A stretch of DNA of 64,000 nucleotides from a virus (taxonomy: Duplodnaviria > Caudoviricetes), in the IMG/VR virus record IMGVR_UViG_3300049455_000007, positions 261 to 64,260 of that record; one strand, 5' to 3'. This document shows, piece by piece, positions 599 through 62,537 of the stretch. Below the pieces are notes generated by a model. The model worked only from the letters and a program-made list of their open reading frames with translations. It did no database searches and was not told the DNA's origin. Both the position numbers and the translations under genes were made by a program. Within the stretch, counting starts at the first letter, position 1. Every line of letters starts with the position of its first letter.

Positions 599-1525
599 TC
601 AGAAGCTCAGGCCGCGCATGGCGGGGGTCAGGGTTGGGTCGCTGATGGACAAGCCTTGGGCCTTCAGGACTCGGTTTGCATGTTGGGAGAGGCTGTTCAC
701 GTTGAACGCACGCACATCGCTGCTGTTCCCCGCATCCCCCGGGTACATGAAGGACAGGGTGATCCGGGCGTACGCGGTGGTGTTGACGAGCGCGGCATCA
801 CCAGCCCTGTCCATGACCGCACGTACCCCCTCCAGCCCCTGCGAATCCAGCGACCCCATCGAAGGGATGAACGCACTGGCCGTCACCAAGGCCCCGAACG
901 TGGGGGTTGGCAGGCTGTAGTTCTCCGTGAGTTCCACCAAGTCCTCTTCGAGGTCCCGCACCGTCATCTGGCTGATGATTTCCGCCTGCGCCCGGCGCTT
1001 CTGGTAGAACTGCGCGGCCAGCGCAAGCTTTGCGGAGGCCGACCCGACACCATCACTGACCGTGGGAAGCAGGCGTTCCGCCCACGGTGCCGCCTTCACG
1101 TACTGGGACACATGGCATGAACGGGTCGAGAACTCCTGCCCGCCGAGGGTCTGCCTGTCAGAGCGCATGACGTTATTGATCCTGACGAACGGGGTGGCAT
1201 TGCCGAACGGCCTTTCGGCCAGCACCCCCACCACGAACACGTCATCGCTGATGACGCCGACGACCGTGTTGCCGGTGGCTATGGGTGGATTGACCGGTGC
1301 GCCCTGCACATATTCGCCGGATGCGGCGATGTACCAGAGGTAGTGGCCGTCGAAGTACCGCTTGTTCTTGACCTCGACGATCGTGTTGAGCAGTCCATCC
1401 GAGGAGTGACCACCCAGTGACGGCACAAAAACACGGTTCAACCGCTGCACAAGGATTCGCTCCACCTCGACGGTGGGGTCCTGTACGGGGTCGACAAAGT
1501 TGGCGAGGTTGGTAGCCGGATACAT
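599..1525 (-). CDS. hypothetical protein (308 aa)
   Basis: Long ORF, RBS AGAAAGGT upstream, no recognisable motif. Confidence 0.8.
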   Translation of the reverse strand: MYPATNLANFVDPVQDPTVEVERILVQRLNRVFVPSLGGHSSDGLLNTIVEVKNKRYFDGHYLWYIAASGEYVQGAPVNPPIATGNTVVGVISDDVFVVGVLAERPFGNATPFVRINNVMRSDRQTLGGQEFSTRSCHVSQYVKAAPWAERLLPTVSDGVGSASAKLALAAQFYQKRRAQAEIISQMTVRDLEEDLVELTENYSLPTPTFGALVTASAFIPSMGSLDSQGLEGVRAVMDRAGDAALVNTTAYARITLSFMYPGDAGNSSDVRAFNVNSLSQHANRVLKAQGLSISDPTLTPAMRGLSF

Positions 1526-1545
1526 GGTGTACCTTTCTGGTTTGG

Positions 1546-1563
1546 CGGCTGGTCGACCAGCCG
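1546..1563. promoter_or_regulatory. 18-bp palindrome family copy 1
   Basis: CGGCTGGTCGACCAGCCG (perfect 22 bp 1544-1565), intergenic. Confidence 0.65.
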
Positions 1564-1573
1564 CCGATGGATA

Positions 1574-1783
1574 TTACTTGCGTGCGGACACGTTGATCCG
1601 CCCGGTGTACAGCACCTCTGCGTCAGGGTGCGATGACTCAAAGACGATGACGAAGGCGTTGCCGTCGCTGTCTATCTCCGAGATGTGGACAAGGTCCTGC
1701 CCGTCCACTTGGAACGCCACGCTGCGGGTGTCGAAGCGCTTGGCCCCGAACCTCCAGCGCAGCGGTAACCGTGGTGGGGTCAA
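1574..1783 (-). CDS. hypothetical protein
   Basis: ORF with 4-bp overlap to upstream gene. Confidence 0.6.
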   Translation of the reverse strand: MTPPRLPLRWRFGAKRFDTRSVAFQVDGQDLVHISEIDSDGNAFVIVFESSHPDAEVLYTGRINVSARK

Positions 1784-1980
1784 CGCTCCACGTCCTGAAT
1801 GAGGTCGCTGATGTTGGGCACGAACGCCTCATCGAAGCAGGTGCCGCACTGGATGGTGAAGTCCCCGAGCATGTCGAGGTTGATGACCACGTCAGAGCCG
1901 GACTGTGTAAGGTCCAACTCGTTCATGGACATCGTCCCCCCGCAGTCACAATCGGCGATGTATTTGATGCGGATAGCCAT
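1780..1980 (-). CDS. small Cys-containing hypothetical protein
   Basis: MAIRIKYIADCDCGG...CGTC; start chosen at ATG overlapping upstream stop. Confidence 0.65.
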   Translation of the reverse strand: MAIRIKYIADCDCGGTMSMNELDLTQSGSDVVINLDMLGDFTIQCGTCFDEAFVPNISDLIQDVER

Positions 1981-2255
1981 CAGCCCACCACATGGTCGTC
2001 GAGGTAGGTCCGCAGCACCCATGCCTGACGATCCAGCGGGCGCACCCCGGTGATGCGCCCCTCGTACAGGTCATCGGACAGGGAACGCAGGTGTTCCACT
2101 ACCTCCTGCTCTGGCACGCCACCGTGTGCGGCCAGCGCCTCCACGAGGATCGGGTTGTAGTGCGTCCACTGGGAGAACGGCGGGTCTATCGCCGGACGGG
2201 GGACGGGCAGGATTTCCATGGGCTGGGTGTCGACGGACAGGGTGTCGGTGTTCAT
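1980..2255 (-). CDS. hypothetical protein
   Basis: MNTDTLSVD..., RBS GAAAGG, ATGA overlap. Confidence 0.65.
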   Translation of the reverse strand: MNTDTLSVDTQPMEILPVPRPAIDPPFSQWTHYNPILVEALAAHGGVPEQEVVEHLRSLSDDLYEGRITGVRPLDRQAWVLRTYLDDHVVG

Positions 2256-2581
2256 TTGGAACCTTTCGCAATTTGACGCTCGATGGCGTCGGTGATGATG
2301 GAGTGCACGGCGGGGGAACCCTCCTCCCAGTCCACCTCCACGATGTCGTCGGCCAGCGCCCGGAGCTTTGCCGGGACGACCGAGCCTGTGGGGACGGCGA
2401 GGATGATTGGCTTGTCCAGCATCACGGACAGTCCCAGTTCCACCGCGAACTTGATGTCCGGCGGTCCCTCGGGCATGAGGGAAATGGTGAACGCGGACCC
2501 TGCAATCTTGGGTACGACTTCGCGCTCTACGCGCCTCGCCCACTCGATGAACTCCGGGTCGTTCATGATGTCGTCAGTCAT
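2252..2581 (-). CDS. hypothetical protein, weak nucleoside 2-deoxyribosyltransferase-like motif
   Basis: RBS GAAAGGA; segment VELGLSVMLDKPII resembles the ExGxAxAxGKP motif; function call tentative. Confidence 0.65.
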   Translation of the reverse strand: MTDDIMNDPEFIEWARRVEREVVPKIAGSAFTISLMPEGPPDIKFAVELGLSVMLDKPIILAVPTGSVVPAKLRALADDIVEVDWEEGSPAVHSIITDAIERQIAKGSK

Positions 2582-2611
2582 GACATTCCTTTCGGTTGGT
2601 TGGTAGCCGGT

Positions 2612-2882
2612 TCATTTGAACCACCTTAAACAAAAGACACAGAAGTCCTCCGGCAGATGATGTAGCCGACGGGGGAAGCCCCGCTCGGCCACCTGCAGAT
2701 TGTCCCTGCGGTTGATCTGGAACATGGCAGCGATCTCGTTGAGTTCAGTCTCGGTGTCATCTTCCGTAGGGTCCCCGCCTGCATCGCGCCATGCGGTCCA
2801 TGGTTCGTGCAGGGTAAGGACTGCAACGATGTCCCCCTCGCAATAGAGGGCACCGTCCCATTTGTAGGCGGAATGCTGAGTC
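2612..2882 (-). CDS. hypothetical protein
   Basis: In ORF 2612..2905; likely start near MTQHSAYKW (start approximate), downstream of promoter at 2980-3008. Confidence 0.6.
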
Positions 2883-2922
2883 ATTGCCCGTCGTGCTCCA
2901 TTCAAAGTGAAAGGTGCGGTGG

Positions 2923-2940
2923 CCGCTGGTCGACCGTCTG
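2923..2940. promoter_or_regulatory. 18-bp palindrome family copy 2
   Basis: CCGCTGGTCGACCGTCTG, downstream of promoter. Confidence 0.75.
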
Positions 2941-2979
2941 CACCCGGAATGAGGGCATAGTTCTACCCCTCTACTCTCA

Positions 2980-3008
2980 AGTATACCAGACTTGGGAAGT
3001 TTTGTCAA
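2980..3008 (-). promoter_or_regulatory. sigma70/SigA-type early promoter
   Basis: TTGACA-17 bp-TATACT with TG extension. Confidence 0.85.
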
Positions 3009-3029
3009 GCGTGGGTAGGGGTGCGCGCC

Positions 3030-3809
3030 TCACGCACCCTGCGCATGCTGCTCCTGCCCCTGTTCAGGGACCTGTGCCACGGGCTGCTGCTGTTGCTGCT
3101 TTTGCTCCCGCTGCATGCGCTTCAGTTCCGCCATAGCGATGTCGTAGTGGTCGATGTACTGCTGCGGGATGCGGCCCGACGGGGCAATCTCAAACCCCTG
3201 CTCGGCGAGCCACGTCCGTATGTGCAGCCGCTCTTGGGCGGACCTGCCCTCCAGTCCGTGACCGGGCTTCAGCTTCCCCCGTGGCGACTTGTCCTTCTTG
3301 TGGTGAGCGCGCTTCTCGTGCTGTGCCGGTCGAGCATGCCCCCCCCTCGCCTCGTCGAAGTCATCCAGCAAGTGCTGCGGCACCGTCTTGTTCAGCGGGA
3401 GGTCGATGCCATGCGATGCCAGCCAATCCCGGAACGCCTTCCGCTCCGCTGTTGAGCGCCCCGCCATCCCCCTCCCCTCGGTCTGCCTCGGGGCAGGTGC
3501 CTCGGTCAGCGGTCGGCGGACAAGGCGGGGGTACTCATCCAGCGGGTGCACGACCGGCTCGGGCACCACCTCGTTTGCTTCGTCGTCGATTGTGATGCTG
3601 CCATCGAGAATGCGGAGGATTTGTTTCGCGTGCAGAGAGCTACTGTGCACTTCCTCCCCATACCTAATGGCCCGGTCCACACGGTGCTGCAATTCGAGAC
3701 TGCGCTCGATAGCGGCTGACGCAATTCGTGGCAACTGGTCATCGCCCCCCATAGCCATGAGCAAATTGTTGGCCTCAATCAGATCATTGAGTTTCACGTG
3801 GTGTTTCAT
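3030..3809 (-). CDS. Lsr2-like DNA-binding protein with two tandem Lsr2 C-terminal domains
   Basis: AFRDWLASHGIDLPLNKTVPQHLLDDF and HIRTWLAEQGFEIAPSGRIPQQYIDHY match the Lsr2 IREWAxxNGxxVSxRGRIPxxVIDAY pattern; RBS AAGGAAG. Confidence 0.8.
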   Translation of the reverse strand: MKHHVKLNDLIEANNLLMAMGGDDQLPRIASAAIERSLELQHRVDRAIRYGEEVHSSSLHAKQILRILDGSITIDDEANEVVPEPVVHPLDEYPRLVRRPLTEAPAPRQTEGRGMAGRSTAERKAFRDWLASHGIDLPLNKTVPQHLLDDFDEARGGHARPAQHEKRAHHKKDKSPRGKLKPGHGLEGRSAQERLHIRTWLAEQGFEIAPSGRIPQQYIDHYDIAMAELKRMQREQKQQQQQPVAQVPEQGQEQHAQGA

Positions 3810-3984
3810 CACTAGCTTCCTTCCTTTGGTTTCCTGCCTGCGTGAGTAATTCCCGGAGTTGGTACGTGGTGATCTTCCCGACCATCGACCCGTAGGACTG
3901 TTGCCCGAAGTCGGCTTCATCGCAGAGGGCGAGGATGGCCTTCAGCACAGGGTGTGTGCAGTCGTCGGCCCTATTCCGTGTCAT
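3784..3984 (-). CDS. hypothetical protein
   Basis: 66-aa ORF filling gap between flanking genes. Confidence 0.55.
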   Translation of the reverse strand: MTRNRADDCTHPVLKAILALCDEADFGQQSYGSMVGKITTYQLRELLTQAGNQRKEASDETPRETQ

Positions 3985-4285
3985 TGGGGATAACCACGGG
4001 CCGCTGATCCAATGGGCGTGGCCGCTGGGGCGGCGTGCCCTTATGTGTGAAATAGCAGACCTGCAATATCAATGACGTTGATACGCCATACCTAGCCGCG
4101 AGTTCCCTAGTCGGGACACCCTGCTCAAACTCCCGCTGAATAGCGGTCATTGCACCTGCTGCGAGCTTTCGGGGGCGTCCGGATAGAGGGTCAATGTAGC
4201 GCCCCTCGGCTACATGCTGGGCTTGCTCCGAAATGCGTGCTCCTGCCCGCTCGTTGCTGATCCGTGCTCGTTTAGCTGCGCTCAT
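3971..4285 (-). CDS. helix-turn-helix DNA-binding protein
   Basis: IQREFEQGVPTRELAARYGVSTSLILQV HTH pattern. Confidence 0.7.
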   Translation of the reverse strand: MSAAKRARISNERAGARISEQAQHVAEGRYIDPLSGRPRKLAAGAMTAIQREFEQGVPTRELAARYGVSTSLILQVCYFTHKGTPPQRPRPLDQRPVVIPNDTE

Positions 4286-4318
4286 TACTGTGGGATTCCT
4301 TTTGTGGTTGGTGCGTCG

Positions 4319-4336
4319 CAGATGGTCGACCACCTG
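4319..4336. promoter_or_regulatory. 18-bp palindrome family copy 3
   Basis: CAGATGGTCGACCACCTG, downstream of promoter. Confidence 0.8.
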
Positions 4337-4362
4337 CGGTTATGTTTGGACACAACTTCCCA

Positions 4363-4391
4363 AGTCTACATACACTTGGGAAGTTTGGCAA
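4363..4391 (-). promoter_or_regulatory. sigma70/SigA-type early promoter
   Basis: TTGCCA-17 bp-TAGACT; overlaps 12-bp inverted repeat AACTTCCCAAGT. Confidence 0.75.
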
Positions 4392-4397
4392 GTCATG

Positions 4398-4688
4398 TCA
4401 TTCTTCCTCCTCCTTCGGTTTGGTGAGGTCCTTGAACTTCCGCTTCCAGTCCCGGCGGGCTTGGCGTTCGGCGGTCCTGCGCTGCCGTTTGGTGATCCGG
4501 TCCATGGCACGCCTGATCCGCACGTACTCCTCGACCTTCTCGTCGAGTGACCGCAGGTCCGGTGGCTTCGGCAGTTGCTTCGGCGGGTCCGGCGGCTTCT
4601 CCGGCGGCTTGGGTTCACGGCGGATGAAGGGCACGATGAACACGAGCGACATGGCCAGCACTAAGACGATGGCCGCGAGCGTGTTCAC
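4398..4688 (-). CDS. membrane protein with Pro/Lys-rich linker
   Basis: N-terminal hydrophobic helix LAAIVLVLAMSLVFIVPFI; GTGA overlap start. Confidence 0.65.
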   Translation of the reverse strand: MNTLAAIVLVLAMSLVFIVPFIRREPKPPEKPPDPPKQLPKPPDLRSLDEKVEEYVRIRRAMDRITKRQRRTAERQARRDWKRKFKDLTKPKEEEE

Positions 4689-4768
4689 CGTCCCCGCCGC
4701 CACCGCTCGTAGTAGGCACGGATCAGCACCCGCACCTGTTCAATGACACCCTGCTTACGTCGAGCCAT
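4685..4768 (-). CDS. 27-aa basic micro-protein
   Basis: MARRKQGVIEQVRVLIRAYYERWRRGR, read manually; 4-bp overlap with next gene. Confidence 0.45.
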   Translation of the reverse strand: MARRKQGVIEQVRVLIRAYYERWRRGR

Positions 4769-4782
4769 GACTGATTCCGTTC

Positions 4783-5088
4783 TTAGAAGAAGTCGGCTGG
4801 GTCACCATCACCGATCGCCTCCTCGGCGGCGTCGAAGTCGCCCTGATTGATGGCCTGCCGCACCTTTGCCCGGCGCTCCTCCGTGGTGGGCACGGGCTTC
4901 TCCCCGACGATGAGGCGCTGGCCATAGCCGGTGCCGAGACGGCCGACGCTGTTGTGCTGGAAGTGGTTTTCACAGAGGTAGGCCCACGGTCCTTCGTCGG
5001 TCTTGGCGTCATACAAAGCGTCGACCGGACCTTCGGGGTGGGGGTAATTGCACTTCGGTAGTTTGGTGACGTAGGCGGTGTCGCTCAT
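4783..5088 (-). CDS. hypothetical protein
   Basis: MSDTAYVTKLPKC..., RBS GAGAGGA. Confidence 0.7.
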   Translation of the reverse strand: MSDTAYVTKLPKCNYPHPEGPVDALYDAKTDEGPWAYLCENHFQHNSVGRLGTGYGQRLIVGEKPVPTTEERRAKVRQAINQGDFDAAEEAIGDGDPADFF

Positions 5089-5228
5089 GATGGTTCCTCT
5101 CTCTGGTTGGATTGTTCTTCCTCGTCGTCGAGCACCCGTTCCAGCAGGCGTCGGCCCCAAGGTGTTATGTGGTCCGGGCTAATCAGCCGGAGCGCGGCGC
5201 GGACACGGACAATGGTGTACTCACTCAT
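5085..5228 (-). CDS. small hypothetical protein (47 aa)
   Basis: MSEYTIVRVRAALRLISP..., RBS AAAGGA, ATGA overlaps at both ends. Confidence 0.55.
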   Translation of the reverse strand: MSEYTIVRVRAALRLISPDHITPWGRRLLERVLDDEEEQSNQREEPS

Positions 5229-5439
5229 CGCGTTCCTTTCGTGAGTTCCTATACAGACGCAGCGCCCGGTTGTGCGCCGTCCGTGCCCTCACTGCTTCCA
5301 CGTGGGCCGCGCTGATGGCATCCGCCAGCCCGCCTTGGAAGCCCTGAAACTTCGCCGCGATCATGGCTAACTCGCGCTCCGTCACCCAGATCGGAACCCG
5401 GGGCGGCTTGGGTTTGGAAGATGGTCGACCGTCTGTCAC
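5221..5439 (-). CDS. hypothetical protein
   Basis: RBS AAAGGAGG; first codons overlap an 18-bp palindrome copy. Confidence 0.65.
   Translation of the reverse strand: MTDGRPSSKPKPPRVPIWVTERELAMIAAKFQGFQGGLADAISAAHVEAVRARTAHNRALRLYRNSRKERDE
5418..5435. promoter_or_regulatory. 18-bp palindrome family copy 4
   Basis: AAGATGGTCGACCGTCTG. Confidence 0.8.
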
Positions 5440-5591
5440 CGTGGCTTACCTCCTTTGTGTATCAGGGGCTTCGGTGGTGGCCAGACAAGGTCGTTGCGCT
5501 TGACCCGCCCACACCCGGGCACCTCGCAGGTGATGTACCGCGCTCCGTAGAGGAACGGCATAGCACTCATGTAGTGGCCCTCGCGCTTCAT
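5436..5591 (-). CDS. small hypothetical protein (51 aa)
   Basis: Manual ORF MKREGHYMSAMPF... with 4-bp overlaps at both ends. Confidence 0.5.
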   Translation of the reverse strand: MKREGHYMSAMPFLYGARYITCEVPGCGRVKRNDLVWPPPKPLIHKGGKPR

Positions 5592-6604
5592 TGGCCCTCC
5601 CCGTGGGCGATGCCATCGGGCAGCCGCTTCAGGTCCCTGATGTAGCGGTGGAATGCCTTCGCCATCCTGTAGTCAGGGTCCACTCCCACCGCCACATCGA
5701 GGTACTGCTCCGCATCCAGCGTCCGTCCCTGCATCCACGACATCCACGCCTGTGCCACGAGCAGAGGCAGGCGGTGCCGGTCGCACGTCCACTGCATGAG
5801 GTTGGCGATGAGTGACGCCGCCGCCATCACCCTTTCGGGATTGGGTTGGATGTCGCTCTGTCCGGTGATCGCATCCCCGAACTCCATGGGGTCCATGGTG
5901 CTGCTGATCGTGTCCACCATGAGCCGGTCACGAAGCATAGGGTTCTGGAAGCAGGCAATGAGGCGCACTGCCTCCGGTTCGGTGGCCCCGAATCCGCGCT
6001 GGAGCAGTGACTCGTACAGCGCCCGCTCCTCCGTCACGTACGGCATGTGCCATGCGTCCTCGATACGGCGGGGGTACTCGGGTATGCGTGCCACCCTTTC
6101 GTCGATGGCCTCCGTCACCTCCTCGGTGAGCGCCGTCGGCTCGGGAATGACCAGCCCCTCCGGCTGGAGCGGGATTCCATTGAGAACCAGTGACGCGGCC
6201 AACTGGGAGTCCTTCACCTCCTCGATGTCATGCCATTGGCCGCTGCCGTACACGTGATACCGCCCGCCCTTCACCAGCACCCCGGGGTTCACGGTCATGG
6301 GGGTGAGGGCATCGAGCGCCAGCATGGTGAGTATGTTCACGTGCTCGTATGGTTCGTGATCGCAGCCCGACTCAGTCTCGGTGTAGAACACCATCACCAG
6401 CGCTTCCGGCTTCAACTCCAACATCTGCGTGATGATGGCAGAGACGTACTCGGCAATGTTCTCCTCGTCCCGCAGGTGCTCCATGCCCAGCGCGGCCTGC
6501 ATCTGGTTGTCCTTGATGGTGATGAGGACCAGTATCTCCTCCGGCTCACGGTTCATGAGCGTTGGGATCAGCGCGAGTAAGTCAGCGGGTGTGGACAGTT
6601 CCAT
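5588..6604 (-). CDS. DUF4192-like protein
   Basis: N-terminus LSTPADLLALIPTLMNREPEEILVL and C-terminal helical region (AWMSWMQG...A...DPDYRMA) fit DUF4192 pattern. Confidence 0.7.
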   Translation of the reverse strand: MELSTPADLLALIPTLMNREPEEILVLITIKDNQMQAALGMEHLRDEENIAEYVSAIITQMLELKPEALVMVFYTETESGCDHEPYEHVNILTMLALDALTPMTVNPGVLVKGGRYHVYGSGQWHDIEEVKDSQLAASLVLNGIPLQPEGLVIPEPTALTEEVTEAIDERVARIPEYPRRIEDAWHMPYVTEERALYESLLQRGFGATEPEAVRLIACFQNPMLRDRLMVDTISSTMDPMEFGDAITGQSDIQPNPERVMAAASLIANLMQWTCDRHRLPLLVAQAWMSWMQGRTLDAEQYLDVAVGVDPDYRMAKAFHRYIRDLKRLPDGIAHGEGQ

Positions 6605-6606
6605 GG

Positions 6607-6957
6607 CTACTCCGTGCTTTCGTTTGCAAGCGGGATAGTGTCCCCGCGATTAAAGTACAGCGGCGCGTTTGGCATTTCCCTGACCCAGACGGTGGGGATG
6701 GGCGCGCGCATATCCACTGAGGACACCGTGAACACGTCACCGAGGATGAACACCCGGGTCCCGGCCCGGAGGGTCCTGATGGGGGTGTCCTCCCCCTCCC
6801 GTGGGTCAGGGAGGAGGCTGTCCACGTCAAAGCGGAGGGCCTGTAGTGACCGGACGAAGCTGTCGATCGCATCATTGATCGACCCGATCGACCCGAATTG
6901 GGCGAAAGGGTCGGGCACCCGCGCCTCCGGGTCACCCCAAGGATCGGAGGTGGTCAT
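6607..6957 (-). CDS. hypothetical protein
   Basis: MTTSDPWGDP..., ATGA overlap. Confidence 0.6.
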   Translation of the reverse strand: MTTSDPWGDPEARVPDPFAQFGSIGSINDAIDSFVRSLQALRFDVDSLLPDPREGEDTPIRTLRAGTRVFILGDVFTVSSVDMRAPIPTVWVREMPNAPLYFNRGDTIPLANESTE

Positions 6958-7478
6958 GGCCGTGGGGAGTCGGTCGACCAGTTGGCGTTGTCCCGCAACA
7001 CGCCCCGGTATTCCGGCGGTACGTCCCCGCCACACCACAGCCCGCGCTTGGTGATGGTGATGCCGTCCGCGATGATGCTGAACTCCCGCCCGCCATACCC
7101 ATGCTCGGGTCCCCACGTGTAGACCGTCCCTTCAATGACCATGAGTTCGCCGTTCGCATACTGTGCCATGCGCCCGGTCCAGAACACGCAGTGAAAACAG
7201 ACAGTCCCGCCCTTGGTGAGGTAGTTGGCATCGGGCCGGAACCGCAGGCCGCAGTTGGTGCATGTGATGACCGGCCAGTTCCTGCGCGGGCCGGGGTCCA
7301 CCGCCCTCCACTGTGACCCGCCCTCGGTGCCCGTCCACTCGGTGATCCACAGGTGCCCGCCACTCCCTTCGAGTGGCATGGTCTGGTGCGGTCCGATGTG
7401 CCCTTCATCCCGGGTGCAGGTGTGCACCTGCCGGTCGTAGAACAGAGGTTTGCTGACGTTGCCGCAGATCATGGTCAT
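6954..7478 (-). CDS. Cys/His-rich hypothetical protein (CxxC pairs)
   Basis: CTNC, CFHC motifs; RBS CAGGAG. Confidence 0.7.
   Translation of the reverse strand: MTMICGNVSKPLFYDRQVHTCTRDEGHIGPHQTMPLEGSGGHLWITEWTGTEGGSQWRAVDPGPRRNWPVITCTNCGLRFRPDANYLTKGGTVCFHCVFWTGRMAQYANGELMVIEGTVYTWGPEHGYGGREFSIIADGITITKRGLWCGGDVPPEYRGVLRDNANWSTDSPRP
6967..6984. promoter_or_regulatory. 18-bp palindrome family copy 5
   Basis: GAGTCGGTCGACCAGTTG. Confidence 0.65.
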
Positions 7479-7807
7479 TCTCCTGTCGCCAATGACCGCA
7501 GGATGCGGGCCATGAGGTCGGTGTCATCAGTGCCAATGAGTGACGAGGTCAGTTCGATGATGGCCCGGTCGTATTCGGTGTTCTCCCCGCCATCGCTGAG
7601 CAGGTCAGCCGCATTCATGAGCACGGTGTATGCCCGGATGTGTGGCTGCACCTGCAACCGGGGGAACTGCTCGTGCGTCATGCAGTCCGGGCAGGTCACA
7701 TCCGTGGGGAAGGGGGAGTAGCGCGTGACATCCGGCGACTCGCAGGCAATGAGGGGTGGTGTCTCTAGGTCCAGCGCATAGTGGATCAGTGTCTGGTTGG
7801 CAGCCAT
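7475..7807 (-). CDS. hypothetical protein
   Basis: ORF in tightly packed operon. Confidence 0.65.
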   Translation of the reverse strand: MAANQTLIHYALDLETPPLIACESPDVTRYSPFPTDVTCPDCMTHEQFPRLQVQPHIRAYTVLMNAADLLSDGGENTEYDRAIIELTSSLIGTDDTDLMARILRSLATGE

Positions 7808-7813
7808 TGGGTT

Positions 7814-8215
7814 CTACTTCCTTGCAGTTGGTCGACCAGTTGCCGTGGGCTTCCGGCCATTCTTTATGAGTTGCTTCGTCGTTCGCGAGCGCACAATCCT
7901 TTTAACGGCACGCACGAACATGCGGTGACCGCGCTCGGCCTCCGCCAGCGTGGAGTACCTGTTCATGAGGTTCTCGAATCCGCCCATGTCGTCGTCCTCG
8001 AAGACAATCGTCTCGAAGATCAGTGGCGGACCGCCGGGCCAGAAGTTGTGGTCCAGACCCAGCCACACGGTGGACACCCGGTACATGTGGCCACGCAGCC
8101 GGATGTAGTCGAGGCTGATATGCCGGTCGTGCTCGAAGGCACGCGCCCACTCCATCTGCGTCATGGGCCTGCCGTTCATGGCGTAGTAGCGCGGGCCGAA
8201 GTCCTCAGCCCTCAC
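7814..8215 (-). CDS. hypothetical phage protein
   Basis: VSTVWLGLDHNF...PPLIFETIVF; start at GTG approximate. Confidence 0.65.
   Translation of the reverse strand: MRAEDFGPRYYAMNGRPMTQMEWARAFEHDRHISLDYIRLRGHMYRVSTVWLGLDHNFWPGGPPLIFETIVFEDDDMGGFENLMNRYSTLAEAERGHRMFVRAVKRIVRSRTTKQLIKNGRKPTATGRPTARK
7825..7842. promoter_or_regulatory. 18-bp palindrome family copy 6
   Basis: CAGTTGGTCGACCAGTTG. Confidence 0.75.
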
Positions 8216-8366
8216 GGCTAGCCGCCAGCCGTTCGATGATGGCATCCGCCGCGTCCCTCAGCGCGAGCAGGTCCAGCGGGTCCGGGTCCTTGCCCCGGAT
8301 GTCATCCCTGATGATGCGCCGGGCGATGGCGTTCAGGTTCCGGTTCAGTGAGCGCATGCTGGTCAT
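8205..8366 (-). CDS. small hypothetical protein (53 aa)
   Basis: Manual ORF MTSMRSLNRNLNAIARRII..., ATGA overlap. Confidence 0.55.
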   Translation of the reverse strand: MTSMRSLNRNLNAIARRIIRDDIRGKDPDPLDLLALRDAADAIIERLAASREG

Positions 8367-8746
8367 GGCAGCACCATCTGCTCCCCGGCCGGGAAGTAGT
8401 GGCGCTGGAACCGCCAGCCCGGGGTAAGGGTGGACCAGTACAGGCCGAACCGTTCAGTGGCAATCTCCCGTGCCCGCTCGTAGTCCGGTGCGGTGATGCG
8501 CACCCAGCCCTTCGCGTTGCAGTCAGCCCACAGCGGGTGAACCTCGCTGTTGTACTGCACCCCGAACGTGAGGAAGAAGTCATTCCCGGTGGCGAGTTGC
8601 CGGGTCCGGGTGTACGCAGCCTTCCGGGCAAGGTGCACATACGCCACGGTGAGGCGTGTGGTGTCCGTGGGGCGGGTGCATGGCTGTCCTGCGGGGACAT
8701 GGCAGGCAGGGCAGGGCACGGCGGCGATGACCTTGGCGGTGTCCAT
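8363..8746 (-). CDS. zinc-finger protein
   Basis: CPACxxxxxxxC...HLAR, same pattern as 51732..51893. Confidence 0.65.
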   Translation of the reverse strand: MDTAKVIAAVPCPACHVPAGQPCTRPTDTTRLTVAYVHLARKAAYTRTRQLATGNDFFLTFGVQYNSEVHPLWADCNAKGWVRITAPDYERAREIATERFGLYWSTLTPGWRFQRHYFPAGEQMVLP

Positions 8747-8749
8747 GGC

Positions 8750-9115
8750 TCAGCGCTTCTCAACCGAGACGGACACGGTGCCATCCGGCCGGTCACCGAT
8801 GAGCACCAGCCTGTAGTCCCAGACCCCGCCGTGCACGGCGGTGAGCGCTTCGAGAATGACACCCTCGTGCGATGAGCCACTGTCCTCGGGAATGAGGTAG
8901 CAGCAGAGGTAATGGCCCCCGGTCACCATCGGAAAGTACGTGGTGTCCTTGAAGCCATTGAGGTAGTACACCGGCAGTGCCCGGGCACCGCCGGAATCGT
9001 AGCGGTCGAACAGCGCGGACATCGCATGCCCGAGGCTGTCGAATACCTCGATGTTGTACTCATCGTTTACCAATGAGTCGTAATTCGGTCCGTGGAATGT
9101 GGCGATCACAGTCAT
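8750..9115 (-). CDS. hypothetical protein
   Basis: RBS TAGGAG, 121 aa. Confidence 0.7.
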   Translation of the reverse strand: MTVIATFHGPNYDSLVNDEYNIEVFDSLGHAMSALFDRYDSGGARALPVYYLNGFKDTTYFPMVTGGHYLCCYLIPEDSGSSHEGVILEALTAVHGGVWDYRLVLIGDRPDGTVSVSVEKR

Positions 9116-9147
9116 TGCGGATAGCTCCTATTCAGTTGGTGGTGTGG

Positions 9148-9165
9148 CAGACGGTCGTACGTCTC
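9148..9165. promoter_or_regulatory. 18-bp palindrome family copy 7
   Basis: CAGACGGTCGTACGTCTC. Confidence 0.75.
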
Positions 9166-9170
9166 CCGGT

Positions 9171-9407
9171 TCAGTGCCCTGTGGTGGGCCGTGCATCTGT
9201 GAAGTGGTCCTGCCCAGCATGCCGAAGATGCCCGGCAATGGCGGCAGGGCCGGTGAATCTGCGCCCGCAGGAGCAGGCATACGGGTGACCCTTGCGGCAG
9301 TTGTCCTGCCATGAGCCACCCTCGTACCCGGCCTTGCCGCAGATGGTGCACTTGACGCGCCCCCGGTGGTGGTTGCCGATGGGGGTGAACAGTTCATCGT
9401 CAGTCAT
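9171..9407 (-). CDS. zinc-finger protein (C2H2-like)
   Basis: CTIC...CSCGRRFTGPAAIAGHLRH. Confidence 0.6.
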   Translation of the reverse strand: MTDDELFTPIGNHHRGRVKCTICGKAGYEGGSWQDNCRKGHPYACSCGRRFTGPAAIAGHLRHAGQDHFTDARPTTGH

Positions 9408-9543
9408 GGATGCCCGTCTGGGTGGTGAGGCCGAGCGCGGCAATTGTCTTGGCCACTTCATCACGGACGGTGAGAAGCATCGCGAGTACATCAGGCCCCA
9501 TCGTGGATGACGGGACGATTACTGGGGGTGTGGTGGTAGCCAT
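9400..9543 (-). CDS. small hypothetical protein (47 aa)
   Basis: Manual ORF MATTTPPVIVPSS... Confidence 0.5.
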   Translation of the reverse strand: MATTTPPVIVPSSTMGPDVLAMLLTVRDEVAKTIAALGLTTQTGIHD

Positions 9544-9602
9544 GGAAAATGCCTGTCTGCGAGTGCGAATTAGGGGTGAACGCTGGTGGGTTACTGACAG
9601 TG

Positions 9603-9827
9603 TCAGTATGCGCCGCGCTGATAGGCAAGTTCCGCGTCGACATGGGTGAGGAAACGGTCGACGTATTCGTCCGCAACGTGGGTGTCACCGTTGCGGATCG
9701 CGGCCAGCGCAGTGGCCAGCAGCCAGCGCTGGGAGGCGAGCATCCCGTTCATGTGGGCACGCTTGGTTTCGATGTCGTCGATGGTGTGCGACATGCTGAT
9801 TTCGCGGGCAGTGAGGTCGGTAGCCAT
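9603..9827 (-). CDS. hypothetical protein
   Basis: MATDLTAREISM..., downstream of promoter 9917-9945. Confidence 0.65.
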   Translation of the reverse strand: MATDLTAREISMSHTIDDIETKRAHMNGMLASQRWLLATALAAIRNGDTHVADEYVDRFLTHVDAELAYQRGAY

Positions 9828-9861
9828 GATGATTCCGTTCTGTGGTTGGTAGCCCGGTCGG

Positions 9862-9879
9862 CAGATGGTCGACCAGTTG
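9862..9879. promoter_or_regulatory. 18-bp palindrome family copy 8
   Basis: CAGATGGTCGACCAGTTG, downstream of promoter. Confidence 0.8.
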
Positions 9880-9916
9880 GTGAGCGGGTTTTGGGCATAC
9901 CTCACCCGCTACTCTA

Positions 9917-9945
9917 AGCGTATCATGTTTGGGTAGAGATGTCAA
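9917..9945 (-). promoter_or_regulatory. sigma70/SigA-type early promoter
   Basis: TTGACA-17 bp-TACGCT. Confidence 0.75.
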
Positions 9946-9971
9946 GTCGTGGGAGGGGGCGGCCTCGCTCA

Positions 9972-10660: not shown

Positions 10661-10700
10661 GACTGGCTCCTTTCGTTGGTTGGTAGCCTGATGAAATGGG

Positions 10701-10731
10701 GCAGGCGGGCGGCTACCAACGACCCGCCTGC
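10701..10731 (-). terminator. GC hairpin (terminator or switch) with GTTGGTAGCC loop
   Basis: Stem GCAGGCGGG/CCCGCCTGC directly after stop of 10739..10930; weak U tract. Confidence 0.55.
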
Positions 10732-52833: not shown

Positions 52834-53384
52834 TGCTCGACTACTTTCAGATCGAAGATGTCCACCTCGGACTCGTCGGCTGGCCAGCGCCGCTCGTCGC
52901 TGGCTGCACCGGGGTTCGCTTCGAGGTAGTCGACAAGGTCGCCCCCGTCGATTTCTTCGACGTCCATCCCCTGCTGGCCGAGCCACTGCTGTAGGTGCTG
53001 CCGGTCCACGGTGGCACGGCAGGAGTAGAGCATCCGCTCCCGCTCGGTCCAGTTGTACGTGATGCTCCGGGCCGTACGCTGCTCATCCAACTGCTTCTCC
53101 AGTTCGATGTAGCTGTCCGACGGCGGGTCGGTGACGTAACCGCCGGGGCCTTCCGGGTCATGCTGGTCGACACCCCGGGGCGGGTCCTCGTCCTTGATCC
53201 AGTCCTCAAACAGGTCAGCCTCATGGCCGTAGCCACCCCCGCGGAGCGCGGTGATGATGTCCTCGTCGGGGTAGGAGAACTCGGTGTGCAGTTCGTTGAG
53301 TTCTTCCATCATGGCGGTGATGTGCTTGTCGCAGGTGTCGGTGATGCGCAGGTTCTTGGCGTCCGGGGTTGGTAGCTCTTTCAC
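52830..53384 (-). CDS. acidic hypothetical protein
   Basis: 184 aa, RBS AAGGA. Confidence 0.7.
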   Translation of the reverse strand: MKELPTPDAKNLRITDTCDKHITAMMEELNELHTEFSYPDEDIITALRGGGYGHEADLFEDWIKDEDPPRGVDQHDPEGPGGYVTDPPSDSYIELEKQLDEQRTARSITYNWTERERMLYSCRATVDRQHLQQWLGQQGMDVEEIDGGDLVDYLEANPGAASDERRWPADESEVDIFDLKVVEQ

Positions 53385-55980: not shown

Positions 55981-56652
55981 CTAGTTCACTGCCTGCTCGG
56001 CCTTCATCTGGAGCGCCCGGTTCAGCAGGGCTTGGTTCGCGTCCCGCTGTTCTGGGGTCACGTTGTACTCAGCCTCGTCGACGATGATGTCCTTCGGCTG
56101 CTCCTCCTTGGCCTGATCCTCCGCCCGCTGCTCCGGGTTGGGCCGGGGCCACAACTGGTCCGGCGCGAACACGCGCTGGACGATGTCGGTCGTGCGTCCG
56201 GCGTTATACAACGAGAGTCCGTACTGCGTGCCGAGGAAGATGGCCGCGCGCTTCAAGGCATCGGACTCGGCGGACTTGATCGCCATGTCCATCGACTCGG
56301 TGATGTCCGGCTGGGATGATCCTGCGATCGCGGCCTCGGTGTAGACGGCACCGGTCTGGTGGATGGTCAGACGTACGACCGCCTTGGCCGTGACCTTCTG
56401 GTTCATCTTGTTGCCGCTGCGCTGTGCGACCTCGCGCACGTCGAGGATTTCGGATTCCAGCAGTTCGGAGGAGAACCCGCCGAAGCCGAACACCTTGATG
56501 AGGGACGCCTTTACGTCCCACGCTTCGAGGTAGGACATGTTGTCCCGCTTGGATACGCGGGCCGGGTTGAGCGGGGACATTAGGGCCAGTTGCTGGTGCC
56601 ACGTCAGCGGGCTAAGTCTGGGGTTGGTCTGCAGTTCAGCGTCGGTAGTCAT
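55981..56652 (-). CDS. Rad52/Rad22-family single-strand annealing protein
   Basis: SYLEAWDV...VFGFGGFS, KSAESDALKRAA..LGTQYGLSLY. Confidence 0.85.
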   Translation of the reverse strand: MTTDAELQTNPRLSPLTWHQQLALMSPLNPARVSKRDNMSYLEAWDVKASLIKVFGFGGFSSELLESEILDVREVAQRSGNKMNQKVTAKAVVRLTIHQTGAVYTEAAIAGSSQPDITESMDMAIKSAESDALKRAAIFLGTQYGLSLYNAGRTTDIVQRVFAPDQLWPRPNPEQRAEDQAKEEQPKDIIVDEAEYNVTPEQRDANQALLNRALQMKAEQAVN

Positions 56653-56658
56653 GTTTCT

Positions 56659-56687
56659 ATTTTATCCCATATCTTCCCAAGTGTCAT
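56659..56687 (-). promoter_or_regulatory. promoter, probably leaderless, for Rad52-like gene
   Basis: ATGACA-17 bp-TAAAAT, ATG 6 nt after the -10, no SD. Confidence 0.6.
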
Positions 56688-56754
56688 ACTCTATCCACAC
56701 TCTGGACAGGTGCCCGGGGCCGGGTGGAACCATCGTCCACCCGACCCCTGACAT

Positions 56755-59743: not shown

Positions 59744-60170
59744 CAGTGACATCCACTTCCGCCGTGACGATTTCAATGTGCGTGTGCCACGTGAACGGGA
59801 ACTCCATCACCCATCCCGGGGCGTCCATGGAGTTGCCGTCCTCGTCGGCGTCACCGACCACAACGTAGTCACCAATCAGGGGCACGGTGAAGTCGGTGAG
59901 TTGCATCCCTTCGAGGGTGGCGTACAACTGCATGGCCCGCAGGTTGATGATGTCCGGGAGGTTTTCGCTGTCGAGGCGGAACAGGCCCTCGTCGTCGTAG
60001 AAGAATGAGAGGTGCTTGTCCCCGTCGCCGACGGTGGACATGGAGAACATGCCGCCGTTGCGGTTGCCGCCGAACACCAGCGCTGTCATCGACTTGTAGT
60101 CGTTGTTGGCATGGTCGGCCCAGCGCAGCGGCTGGGTCTTGTCCGACGGGATGATGATTGCCTTGGACAT
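59736..60170 (-). CDS. DUF3846-like protein
   Basis: MSKAIIIP...YDDEGL...NLRA...LIGDYVVVG. Confidence 0.6.
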   Translation of the reverse strand: MSKAIIIPSDKTQPLRWADHANNDYKSMTALVFGGNRNGGMFSMSTVGDGDKHLSFFYDDEGLFRLDSENLPDIINLRAMQLYATLEGMQLTDFTVPLIGDYVVVGDADEDGNSMDAPGWVMEFPFTWHTHIEIVTAEVDVTDD

Positions 60171-60188
60171 TTCGATTCCTTTCGATGG

Positions 60189-60206
60189 CAGACGGTCGAC
60201 CGTCTG
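60189..60206. promoter_or_regulatory. 18-bp palindrome family copy 23
   Basis: Perfect copy, intergenic after helicase. Confidence 0.85.
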
Positions 60207-60221
60207 CCGGGTTGGTAGCTC

Positions 60222-61457
60222 TTAGTTGTAGCGGGCGTGGTGGTCCTGCCGCTCTTGGCTGATGACGGCTCTCGCTCGCGGGCTGATGGTGTCACCGCTC
60301 CACGGGAGTATCCCGCCGCGCCATAGTTCACGCGGCCACTCCCTGCCCGTCTCACGGTCCCCACGCCACCTTTGGATATTGGTGAGTTGGGGATTCTCGG
60401 AGTCGGGGTACATCCCGAACCCGAACTCGGGCCAGCCGAGCAGTGCAGCCGAACCACGCGGGGACATGTCCCGCTGTCCGTTGGCTCCGGTGCCCTTCGG
60501 CGAGTGACCCTCCATGATGAGCGCCAGCCCACGATCACGTAGGGAGTCCAGCGCCGTGATGACCGGCGCGGCTTCCTGATCGTTGTTGATCCCGGTGGAC
60601 ACCATCTTGTAGATCGGCCCGATGGCCAGTACCTGCGGCTCGTGCTCGTCCACGAGCCGGTGAATCTCTCCCAGTGTTGCGTCCCTCGTTATGTCGATCC
60701 TTCCTTTTGCGTGGATGTGAATCCTTGGGGCGGGGTTGTTGCCCCCCATGCGGTGGATGTTGTGCACCATACCCCGGGTGTGTGACCGCCACTGCGCCTC
60801 GGTGTTCTCCGCGTCCACCACCAGCACGGTGAGCGGTTCGTCCAGCATGTTCAGCGTGGTGGGGTGGATACCCGCCGCCATGCAGATGACCAACTGCCGG
60901 ACCCACGTCGTCTTTCCCCCACCCTCGAAGCCGGTGATGATGAGCCTGTCACCGCGTTCGAGCAGGTCCGGGATCAGCCAGTCGTGGTCCTCCGCCACGG
61001 CAAGGATTTCTTCCAGCGTCTTTGTCGTCATCCGGTTCTTGCCGGTGGAGTGCAGGTCCTTGATGGCCTCGGCCACCATCTGGATCGCCTGCGACGGCGC
61101 GATCGTTTCATCCCTCGCCGCGCTCATAAGCTTCGTGGCGATGGACTCCATGCGACGGCGGGTTGCCACCTTCTTCACCTGCTCGGCGTAGAAGGTGATC
61201 GACGCCGCCGACATCGTCTCCTGCTGCATGCGGTACAGGTCAACGAGTTGGAGTCCCCGGTGCCCGGACTCCGATGCCTTGGCATGCACGGACATCGGTT
61301 CGACCGGCTCCCCATCGTTGATGAGTTGCATGATGGCCCGGAAGTAAGCGGTGTGTGACGAAAGCTCGAAGTCCTCCGGCTCGATCATGTCCGCCGCGAA
61401 GCGGGCACTCGCCGGTTCGAGCAGGCAGGCACCGATCACTGATTCCTCGGGTGTCAT
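60222..61457 (-). CDS. DnaB-like replicative helicase
   Basis: DnaB N-terminal domain (EESVIGACLL), Walker A GFEGGGKT, VVDAEN, GWPEFG. Confidence 0.85.
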   Translation of the reverse strand: MTPEESVIGACLLEPASARFAADMIEPEDFELSSHTAYFRAIMQLINDGEPVEPMSVHAKASESGHRGLQLVDLYRMQQETMSAASITFYAEQVKKVATRRRMESIATKLMSAARDETIAPSQAIQMVAEAIKDLHSTGKNRMTTKTLEEILAVAEDHDWLIPDLLERGDRLIITGFEGGGKTTWVRQLVICMAAGIHPTTLNMLDEPLTVLVVDAENTEAQWRSHTRGMVHNIHRMGGNNPAPRIHIHAKGRIDITRDATLGEIHRLVDEHEPQVLAIGPIYKMVSTGINNDQEAAPVITALDSLRDRGLALIMEGHSPKGTGANGQRDMSPRGSAALLGWPEFGFGMYPDSENPQLTNIQRWRGDRETGREWPRELWRGGILPWSGDTISPRARAVISQERQDHHARYN

Positions 61458-62278
61458 CGACGGTTCTCCGGTATCCATGAGTGCATCGGGTGGACGATCG
61501 ACTGGTTAGAGGGCTTCCAGCCCCTGCGTTCCGCATCCGTCTGCGCCCGGCGCATCCAGTTCCGCCATGTGGTTTCCCAATTCTTCTTCTTGCCCCCCTC
61601 CCCATGCCAGTAGTCCACGAACGCATCCGTCTCACGCTTGGCATTGATGGCGGGAGCGTGCTCTTTGGCCCACGCCTCCCGCTCGGGAGACAGTCCGAAC
61701 TCAGCCGGGACGGCATGCGCAGCCGCTGCCTTCGGGGCCTTCGATGGAGCGGCGCTACTAATGGATGGTTCATGGATGGTTAAAGGACGGTTTGTAGGAC
61801 ATCCGTGTCCGGCCTGAATGTCTCCAGTGTCCGGCCTAGATGTCTCAGATGTCCGCCCGGACACGGGTGACCGGTCACCCGTGTCCGCCCTGCCCCCCAG
61901 TTCTGGCCGGACACTGGTGTCCGGGCGGACATCCTGTCCCCCCAAGATTGGCTCCAAGATTTCCTGTCCGATGTGCTCGTCCGGGGTGGCCTCGACATCC
62001 AAGCACAGGTCCCAAACGATGGGCCTGCGGTTGGTCGGGATGTGCGCGACCATCTGCTGGTCACCGCGTTTGATGAGGCCCGCCGCCTCCAGTACGGCGA
62101 GCTTCCTGCGTACTGTTCGGGACGAGGTCCGTGCGTACGTTGCGAGCGTGTTCTGTGCGGCATACGCCACCGTGCCATCCTCGTGCGCATGATCGGCAAG
62201 GCCGACGAGGATAAGGGCTTCCACCGGGTCTGAGACGGGGGCCTTCTTCAAGGCCCAAACCATGGCTTCTATACTCAC
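61454..62278 (-). CDS. replication initiator (N-terminal HTH, lambda O-like architecture)
   Basis: LILVGLADHA...QNTLATYARTSSRTVRRKLAVLEAAGLIKR; central repeats; C-terminal WETTWRNW; upstream of helicase. Confidence 0.8.
   Translation of the reverse strand: MSIEAMVWALKKAPVSDPVEALILVGLADHAHEDGTVAYAAQNTLATYARTSSRTVRRKLAVLEAAGLIKRGDQQMVAHIPTNRRPIVWDLCLDVEATPDEHIGQEILEPILGGQDVRPDTSVRPELGGRADTGDRSPVSGRTSETSRPDTGDIQAGHGCPTNRPLTIHEPSISSAAPSKAPKAAAAHAVPAEFGLSPEREAWAKEHAPAINAKRETDAFVDYWHGEGGKKKNWETTWRNWMRRAQTDAERRGWKPSNQSIVHPMHSWIPENRR
61805..61925. repeat. iteron-like direct and inverted repeats (candidate origin)
   Basis: GTGTCCGGCCT at 61805 and 61827; perfect 30-bp palindrome 61858-61887; CCGGACAC-T-GGTGTCCGG. 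Confidence 0.65.
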
Positions 62279-62397
62279 TGCTGCTACTTGTCCCCTTAGT
62301 TGGTTGTGCGGTTGCTTCGTTGCACCGGTACCATAGGAGATACCCCCCCCTATGGGTCCTACCGGTTGAGTCACATCCGCACGGTTTGGTTGAAATC

Positions 62398-62434
62398 AAA
62401 AGCGCCCCTGCCGTCCAAAGCTGGGGGCGCTTTT
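62398..62434. terminator. bidirectional-type intrinsic terminator
   Basis: AAAAGCGCCCC/GGGGCGCTTTT. Confidence 0.75.
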
Positions 62435-62537
62435 TCATTTGGTTCCGATAGCCTATCGCAAGCGTTATGCCGCGCTTCTTGGTATGCTGGAGGTTCGGTT
62501 TACATTCAGAGGTTGGTAGCCAAAGGTTGTACCGAAC

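Follow-up and report, generated by a model that had tools for sequence, protein, structure and literature searches.

Short asymmetric repeats at translation starts were described in 2011 in cluster K mycobacteriophages, where the start-associated sequence (SAS), a 13-bp consensus GGGATAGGAGCCC with at most two deviations, lies 3 to 7 bp before the start codon and includes the AGGAG core of the ribosome-binding site (PMC3203893). Its function was still called unknown in 2024 and 2025 (PMC11373665, PMC12699233). Here, we describe a different motif, RGCTACCAAC(C), in a tailed phage known from a single-contig virus record (IMGVR_UViG_3300049455_000007), of which we analyzed 64,000 of the 64,260 bases (hereafter, the window). 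The motif recurs at the starts of genes in the leftward early and replication block, and its exact reverse complement lies in the loops of two conserved hairpins. We propose that it is a conserved RNA-level regulon element of the leftward transcripts, paired by these hairpin loops beside ribosome-binding sites, a reading that we hold tentatively, at slightly less than an even chance.

SAS is the described system that the motif comes closest to in behavior. Both occur as a dozen or so short asymmetric copies in one orientation, in the non-structural arm and at the starts of unrelated genes (here, 14 sense against 2 reverse copies). Both are conserved over diverged relatives. A subset of SAS has imperfect inverted repeats upstream (ESAS), and the lineage-specific palindromes that often accompany the motif, at varying spacing and order, may be comparable. 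In both systems the rare reverse copies lie away from gene starts, the single reverse SAS of Mycobacterium phage Anaya also sitting in an intergenic hairpin loop. However, the motif is not a member of the SAS family, as it departs from it in sequence and position. The first-pass annotation of this DNA had held that the cluster K sequence is a different one, and we agree: GGCTACCAACC has no similarity to the SAS consensus. The motif neither contains nor replaces the Shine–Dalgarno (SD) sequence, its 5′ end lies at +3, +8/+9, or −27/−28 instead of 3 to 7 nt upstream, and copies of it also occur within coding sequences and in a non-coding RNA. The hosts are of another group as well, the relatives of this phage infecting Arthrobacter, and no antisense partner is described in the SAS literature covered.

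Gene calls made from codon-usage scores divide the window into a rightward block of virion and lysis genes (14139–51101) and a continuous leftward block, which runs from 13620 down past position 1, over the assembly junction, and on to 51228, and which corresponds to the genomic right arm in relatives. Exact GGCTACCAAC occurs 10 times in the window against 0.11 expected from dinucleotide shuffles (none of 100 shuffles reached 10), and 20 copies with at most one mismatch compare with 3.1 expected. The sense strand of the leftward block carries 8 exact and 6 one-mismatch copies, with C at position 11 in 12 of these 14, and the antisense strand carries 2. The same asymmetry is seen in 6-mer sub-motifs, with 20 to 26 sense and 2 to 3 antisense occurrences. 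All 13 positions listed in the first-pass annotation are real, and it had missed one further copy, at 7796. The sense copies are as follows, with orthologous sites in related lineages given as lineage label and position.

13609–13618, minus strand: exact motif at the TTG start 13620 of the first early gene, 12838–13620 (TTG-GCT-ACC-AAC, M-A-T-N); the L277 orthologue of this gene begins GTG-GCT-ACC-AAC.
12165–12174, minus strand: exact motif at the ATG-GCT-ACC-AAC start 12176 of gene 11787–12176, downstream of a promoter-like TTGACA-N17-TAATGT and a palindrome; orthologue L278:8344.
11568–11577, minus strand: variant GGCTACCAAA, 3 nt past the stop TAG (11581–11583) and followed by a palindrome and the next start.
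11489–11498, minus strand: exact motif at the ATG-GCT-ACC-AAC start 11500 of a small open reading frame (ORF), 11339–11500; orthologues L125:448 and L277:8662.
10679–10688, minus strand: exact motif in a leader, 5′ end at −28 from ATG 10660 (gene 10274–10660) and 22 nt downstream of the antisense copy in hairpin A; the module is also present in L125, L277, and L278.
9845–9854, minus strand: exact motif in a leader, 5′ end at −27 from ATG 9827 and 5 nt after a palindrome; orthologues L277:10655 and L278:10660.
9816–9825, minus strand: variant GGCTACCGAC at the ATG-GCT-ACC-GAC start 9827 of gene 9603–9827 (M-A-T-D).
9532–9541, minus strand: variant GGCTACCACC at the ATG-GCT-ACC-ACC start 9543 of gene 9400–9543 (M-A-T-T); this variant is kept at L125:2574 and L278:10966.
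7796–7805, minus strand: variant GGCTGCCAAC at the ATG start 7807 of gene 7475–7807; the same variant is found at L125:4373 and the exact motif at L278:12916.
2599–2608, minus strand: exact motif in a leader, 3 nt past the stop TGA of gene 2612–2905, 5′ end at −27 from ATG 2581; orthologues L125:8907, L127:2336, and L278:18674.
1508–1517, minus strand: exact motif in codons 3–6 of the 308-aa gene 599–1525 (ATG-TAT-CCG-GCT-ACC-AAC, M-Y-P-A-T-N).
62512–62521, minus strand: exact motif with no start nearby, in a conserved non-coding stretch between two terminator-like hairpins.
60211–60220, minus strand: variant AGCTACCAAC, 1 nt past the stop TAA of the DnaB-like gene 60222–61478, followed by a perfect palindrome and start 60170; the site after the DnaB-like gene holds AGCTACCAAC at L126:7704 and L127:9015 and TGCTACCAAC at L267:11253.
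53368–53377, minus strand: variant AGCTACCAAC in codons 3–6 of gene 52830–53384 (GTG-AAA-GAG-CTA-CCA-ACC); orthologue L266:18313.

Eleven of the 14 sense copies fall inside −35 to +20 of a start codon, positions that make up 10.8% of the block (binomial P ≈ 6 × 10−9), a statistic that is not fully blind, as starts 12176, 11500, and 9827 were preferred over longer ORFs by SD position and frame-specific codon scores. In the first register, seen in six genes (13620, 12176, 11500, 9827, 9543, and 7807), the motif begins on the G of the ATG or TTG. In the second, the 5′ end lies at −27 or −28 in three leaders (2581, 9827, and 10660), with a separate SD (GAAAGG, GGAAGG, and similar) between the motif and the ATG. 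Two more genes (1525 and 53384) carry the motif in codons 3–6 and in different reading frames, GCT-ACC-AAC and, at 53384, GAG-CTA-CCA-ACC. The remaining three copies lie just after stop codons (11577 and 60220) or in the non-coding stretch (62521). The contexts thus stand as the first-pass annotation had read them, with MATN, MATD, MATT, and MYPATN starts at 13620, 12176, 11500, 9827, 9543, and 1525 and leader copies ahead of the SD (its positions 2598, 9844, and 10678), and so does its claim of nearby palindromes: for 10 of the 14 copies, a 20-bp palindrome of one family is found at a distance of about 60 bp or less, in varying spacing and order, and palindromes of this family occur in late genes as well. 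No Pfam family was recognized in the ten motif-bearing proteins, and their PHROGs matches are all of unknown function.

Base composition does not explain the motif. The annotation had named a general A/C-rich bias at 5′ ends as the finding that would undo its proposal, and the leaders are not notably A/C-rich (24% A and 32% C, against 22% and 31% in the whole block), while the sub-motifs share the strand bias. By eye, neither a −35 nor a −10 element is conserved at constant spacing from the motif, upstream or downstream, and an E. coli-type consensus scan found no promoters in 9000–14200 or 60000–64000. TTGACA-N17-TAnnnT sites were seen by eye upstream of 12236, 9905, and 2905; the −10 consensus used for these is the actinobacterial one.

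Classical translation enhancers were described at these two registers, just ahead of the SD and just after the AUG, and several copies lie 1 to 4 nt past an upstream stop, which would suit re-initiation. The motif could accordingly be read as an autonomous enhancer, ribosome standby site, or re-initiation site, acting as an unstructured C/A-rich stretch with no specific partner in trans, and related motif-less phages do have other C/A-rich leaders, such as ACACACACC before ATG. We regard this as improbable. Besides the composition of the leaders, an exact 10- to 11-mer is kept over deep divergence, beyond what a lack of structure would need, and both the copy in the non-coding RNA and the reverse copies in loops are left unexplained. 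No complement with up to one mismatch was found in ribosomal RNA (rRNA) operon stretches from 120 genomes, and the best duplex with 16S rRNA (−14.7 kcal/mol) compares with a mean of about −13.8 for shuffled motifs, so the motif does not behave as an rRNA-complementary enhancer of the downstream box or epsilon type.

These tests also bear on the proposal that the motif pairs with a host RNA (16S or 23S rRNA, a tRNA, or a conserved small RNA) which the phage loops mimic. A partner fixed by the host would fit the deep conservation of the motif, and actinobacterial 16S rRNA has GGUAGCCG near its 3′ end, an 8-nt complement. However, the complement of the 11-mer is absent at up to one mismatch from the 120-genome rRNA set, shuffled motifs give 16S duplex energies comparable to that of the motif, whose 16S site we take to lie in helix 45, and the reverse 11-mer is present in 40 of 81 Micrococcaceae genomes, about as often as a backwards control, which argues against a conserved host RNA gene. 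Together, they weakly refute pairing with host rRNA or a conserved host RNA, the genomes tested being ones that may not include the true host, and we consider such pairing very improbable.

Contigs of relatives were collected through the 308-aa M-Y-P-A-T-N protein family, the small protein encoded downstream of hairpin A, and the DnaB-like protein. The first has seven homologues in metagenome assemblies at 58% to 68% identity, all starting MYPATNL, and the second has 52. The syntenic pieces represent at least seven related phage lineages (L125, L126, L127, L266/L280, L267, L268–L271, L277, L278, and L279), beside a distant one, L128/L129, in which the identity of the 308-aa protein falls to 27%. 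All of these lineages, including the distant one, carry the motif at orthologous and additional starts, on the sense strand only apart from reverse copies in hairpin loops; in L277, 14 kb of early genes include nine exact copies. Across nine homologues of the 308-aa gene, CCG GCT ACC AAC is invariant, while nearby conserved Pro, Val, Tyr, and Ala codons vary. Elsewhere, the motif was missing from SilentRX, AWGoat, and the distant homologue contigs L263–L265, L281, and L282, and these contigs therefore offer no variant motif for co-variation. A scan of IMG/VR with the 14-mer GTTGGTAGCCGCCC gave only chance matches, one copy per contig; IMG/VR and species genomes yielded no relatives of the 308-aa protein, and a literature search found no paper with the motif in a phage context.

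The accompanying palindromes differ between lineages while the motif stays constant, so the motif evolves far more slowly than its neighbors. The palindrome is GCAGACGGTCGACCGTCTGC in the window, GCAGTTGGGCGACCAACTGC in L127 and L277, and TGACGACCGGTCGTCA in L128/L129, with the core ATCGGGCGACCGAT in L266/L280; SilentRX-type phages have GGGGGGTCGG-N4-CCGACCCCCC.

As an observation on the palindromes themselves, the GCAGACGGTCGACCGTCTGC family has 23 sites in the window, from 2922 to 62903 (e.g. 26783, 51204, and 60188), with members within late genes and at the convergent junction 51204, and each related lineage has a different palindrome in the same places. Some half-site changes are non-compensatory, which favors recognition by a DNA-binding protein over an RNA hairpin. 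In SilentRX (L122) and BruhMoment (L123), the leftward genes of each genome have about 20 perfect hairpins of the form GGGGGGTCGG-N4-CCGACCCCCC, placed 2 to 10 nt upstream of the SD and sometimes within coding sequence, with ACACACACC leaders alongside; they seem to form a start-associated architecture that is analogous yet distinct. In L282 (ENA contig k141_426882, positions 1–10000), a distant phage that has the small MDWF-type gene in common, gene ends carry about 20 copies of (T)AGTTACAAAAA(G/A)TG, another lineage-specific boundary repeat.

Could the motif itself act as DNA, either as an asymmetric site for a phage DNA-binding protein or as a boundary linker for modular gene exchange? Promoter-early stem-loops of the T4 type and lambdoid boundary sequences are parallels, double-stranded sites would look alike in both orientations, and the copies do lie at gene boundaries beside promoter-like sites and palindromes. 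Some start contexts share longer identity (e.g. GGAATCATCATGGCTACC at 9827 and 11500), and the hairpin-plus-motif module in L278 precedes a different gene than in the window. Yet a DNA element predicts neither the 14:2 strand bias with fixed start registers, nor synonymous-site invariance at orthologous positions over long divergence, nor reverse copies solely in loops flanked by covarying inverted repeats, and we judge it a quite improbable explanation.

The reverse copies are the evidence that most directly concerns a partner. Only two exact copies lie on the plus strand, at 10711 and 63943, and on the leftward transcript they read GUUGGUAGCC. Both are in loops of strong hairpins that begin shortly past stop codons.

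10698–10735, minus strand: hairpin A, beginning 3 nt past its stop codon (TAG, 10739–10741), with a GC-rich stem of about 12 bp and a loop holding the exact complement GUUGGUAGCC (10711–10720); fold −38.1 kcal/mol, z −3.2.
63927–63973, minus strand: hairpin B, 15 nt past the stop TAA (63989–63991) of the junction-spanning gene, with a stem of 15 to 16 bp and a loop of 15 to 17 nt that carries GGUUGGUAGCC, the exact complement being at 63943–63952; fold −48.6 kcal/mol, z −5.5.

Only 2.5% of the block falls in the loop of a hairpin with 8 or more contiguous pairs, and in relatives all nine exact reverse copies lie in the loop of a hairpin A or B orthologue. The two hairpin families were aligned separately, as a combined alignment misplaced the stems. 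For hairpin B, all 103 cells of 15 pairs in seven lineages are standard-paired, with three pairs changed on both sides (e.g. C-G, A-U, U-A, and G-C at one position) and four on one side; sliding the partner by 1 to 3 columns as a control left 34% to 54% paired. For hairpin A, in four lineages, a bulged C became a U-A pair, a base pair was inserted on both strands, and one C-G became U-G. The ten loop bases are unchanged in six of seven lineages for hairpin B and in all four for hairpin A, whereas adjoining loop bases vary. In all four of the latter, a sense motif lies 22 to 25 nt beyond hairpin A, ahead of an SD and a start; the gene that begins there is a different one in L278.

Exact complementarity between loop and motif extends over 10 to 14 nt. 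Predicted duplexes between the loops and the start regions of motif genes reach −19 to −26 kcal/mol, against a median of −13 over all leftward starts and no better than −16 for the best of 36 rightward starts, energies that follow from the complementarity and are no independent test of pairing. The loops contain UUGG, an instance of the Y-U-N-R motif known in fast-pairing antisense loops. Each operon ended by hairpin A or B has motif-bearing genes. As candidates for canonical intrinsic terminators, the two hairpins were rejected, with loops of 11 to 17 nt, weak U tails, and no call in a consensus scan. Nothing in the window reached the gathering score of an Rfam 15 family, and ARAGORN called neither a tRNA nor a tmRNA.

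A function in RNA, which the first-pass annotation had proposed, is supported by these observations: the motif is strand-specific, lies in leaders, in two reading frames, and in non-coding RNA, is fixed at synonymous sites, persists beside changed palindromes, and has its complement in covarying loops. Of the three roles that the annotation had entertained, namely enhancer, protein target, and RNA target, we favor the last, as only RNA–RNA pairing connects the sense copies with the reverse copies.

Initiation in bacteria needs the stretch around the SD and AUG to be single-stranded for the 30S subunit. The motif is placed at +3 to +12 after the start, at −27 to −18 just 5′ of the SD, shortly past an upstream stop, or, once, in a non-coding RNA. 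Both registers flank the SD–AUG core within that stretch, so a duplex of 10 to 14 bp would be expected to block initiation. The partner, we propose, would be the 10- to 14-nt complement in the loops of the two conserved hairpins after stop codons of the same transcripts, pairing from loop to linear RNA at about −19 to −26 kcal/mol across the region that the 30S subunit needs. Because motif-bearing genes lie within operons ending in hairpin A or B, the loops could act in cis or in trans. The outcome might be group repression of the translation of about a dozen early genes or an otherwise altered fate of the mRNA, and decay-resistant 3′ hairpin fragments, which would typically be the most stable remnants of an mRNA, could accumulate and feed back on the early genes. 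We infer the pairing in vivo, the direction of regulation, and its timing from the arrangement of the elements.

Such an arrangement has precedents in loop-seed antisense RNAs, which include the c4 RNA of phages P1 and P7, with targets on the same strand and in the same operon, and RNAIII of Staphylococcus, with its C-rich loops, one of them in the terminator hairpin. As in c4 and RNAIII, one strand carries both regulator and targets, a hairpin loop with Y-U-N-R presents the complement, and several targets are at or near ribosome-binding sites; duplexes are about 10 nt long. At least 7 to 10 contiguous nucleotides from an exposed loop to a target near a ribosome-binding site define the class, and 10 to 14 are found here. 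Unlike c4 and RNAIII, the loop hairpins of this phage follow protein-coding genes instead of being specified by dedicated RNA genes whose promoters are known, the targets number about 14, no sequence similarity or Rfam match connects the systems, and the present one is known from sequence alone. Pairing of a 3′ with a 5′ untranslated region (UTR) is known from icaR of Staphylococcus aureus and from the fold-back element of hok mRNA. Here, too, a 3′-end element is complementary to a translation start region, and the operons of hairpins A and B hold motif genes; in contrast to icaR and hok, the complement misses the SD, has multiple targets, and sits in a loop instead of a linear 3′ UTR.

Several observations weigh against pairing by the hairpin loops. 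The hairpin B loop of L266/L280 reads GGGGGUAGCC, with 8 of 10 positions complementary, and exact sense motifs persist in this lineage. In the 21 kb covered of L129, sense motifs occur with no exact reverse copy, the only match being 9 of 11 positions, in a hairpin loop. The loop partly pairs with itself (GGUU/AGCC), and a full pseudoknot in cis at hairpin A was rejected as sterically strained, by an estimate of a 2-nt first loop over a 10-bp helix and a 9- to 10-nt third loop over a 12- to 14-bp helix. The motif is constant in all lineages in which it is found, which leaves no motif change for the loops to follow, although just outside the seed, on its 5′ side, the L267 loop has A in place of G, matching T at motif position 11 in two of four sites. 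Conservation of this degree exceeds the need of freely co-evolving partners and may point to one that evolves more slowly, for instance a protein. Finally, no public RNA run is listed for the stretch; the sole public run containing the sequence is a soil-metagenome DNA run, possibly its source.

A protein partner is accordingly the alternative that we take most seriously, and we consider it unlikely but realistic. The motif, GGCUACCAACC as RNA, would then be the operator of a RegA-like translational regulator of phage or host, the non-coding RNA would be a decoy, and the loops would modulate access or be secondary. A slow protein partner would account for a motif unchanged down to 27% protein identity while the palindromes changed, and for sense motifs that persist where the loop is degenerate or not found; the non-coding RNA, moreover, displays the motif in a large loop. 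RegA of T4 is a translational repressor whose operators are A/U-rich and poorly conserved, and the motif resembles its targets in overlapping or flanking start codons, as a phage-specific signal of an early mRNA set. Unlike for RegA, an RNA complement exists here, and a scan of the ten motif-bearing genes against Pfam and PHROGs yielded no RegA-like protein or other candidate RNA-binding protein. A protein also leaves unexplained why 11 of 11 exact reverse copies lie in loops of covarying hairpins. With good but indirect support and one contrary lineage, the hairpin loops as partners of the motif come close to an even chance in our estimation without quite reaching it.

The copy without a nearby start belongs to a further element.

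62395–62585, minus strand: conserved non-coding region of about 190 nt, with a small gene on one side and, on the other, the gene that precedes the DnaB-like helicase gene.

In order, the region comprises a hairpin (62536–62578), the motif, about 90 nt, a strong hairpin with a U run (62398–62434), and then UUUUGAUUU. Its mean column identity is 82% in three lineages whose proteins are 58% to 68% identical, and it is recognizable in six lineages, including the distant one, in which the stem of the first hairpin co-varies. The longest invariant block is TTGGCTACCAACC (window, L126, L127, L266, L267, and L129). In the consensus fold, GUUCGGU pairs with ACCGAAC to close a large loop that includes the motif. 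At the terminal hairpin, loop sequences similar to the reverse motif are seen in L126 (UUGGUAG), L127 (UUGGUGG), and L129 (GGUUAGGAGCC), and the window shows hardly any such similarity. A 26-base pattern from the region had no match in IMG/VR. We regard the region as a candidate small RNA, leader, or attenuator upstream of the replication genes that would be part of the same system as the motif.

The ends of the record share a 28-bp overlap (window 63973–64000 and the 260 bases preceding the window), which shows that the assembly is circular, with 64,232 unique bases. Because a gene of 276 aa runs across the junction, the record is permuted with respect to the physical ends in use for cultured relatives. 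DNA identity to the Arthrobacter phages SilentRX, AWGoat, Tank, and Beagle is about 70% in structural, recombination, and replication genes; megablast against the annotated phage collection found no close relative, and the early region has no counterpart there.

Three stretches of the minus strand stood out in the gene layout. In 11100–12300, the coding frame switches three times (12176–11787, ~11781–11581, 11500–11339, and then ~11456/11408–11160); calls of the longest ORF are misleading here, and several genes of 50 to 70 codons are likely. At 63491–63784, where the gene caller had taken the opposite strand, a 97-codon ORF with a GAGGAG SD is preceded by a hairpin and a promoter-like TTGGCA-N17/18-TAAAGA. 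At 56652–56700, in the region of a Cas4-type exonuclease homologue, TATGACA-N17-TAAAAT lies 6 nt ahead of ATG 56652, and the transcript is likely leaderless or nearly so.

In Anaya (L124, 59840–59910), a GCGCGG/CCGCGC hairpin displays the reverse SAS (59870) in its loop, CCUCCUAUCC. A longer stem encloses this hairpin, and the intergenic region around it, which carries no annotation, is conserved in 138 cluster K records. Five further phages were aligned (L272–L276): CrimD, Niklas, and Amelie keep the CCUCCUAUCCCC loop, Ekdilam and Keshu differ, and Niklas and Amelie show compensatory changes in the outer stem. It is possible that the Anaya-type hairpin is an anti-SAS RNA, a parallel that we offer as a lead.

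More broadly, start-associated sequences of actinobacteriophages might be the target half of phage-encoded RNA–RNA regulons, in which accumulating hairpins would time the shut-off or re-tuning of early genes, possibly by the same logic in cluster K. We consider this generalization rather unlikely as it stands, but worth stating. The motif is a second, unrelated start-codon repeat system after that of cluster K, with a concrete candidate partner, and its complement in covarying loops makes the mechanism directly testable. If true, it would represent a phage-wide post-transcriptional regulon in phages of high-GC Gram-positive bacteria, where such control is almost unexplored, and annotators could rely on the motif to recognize genuine start codons and small genes in these phages.

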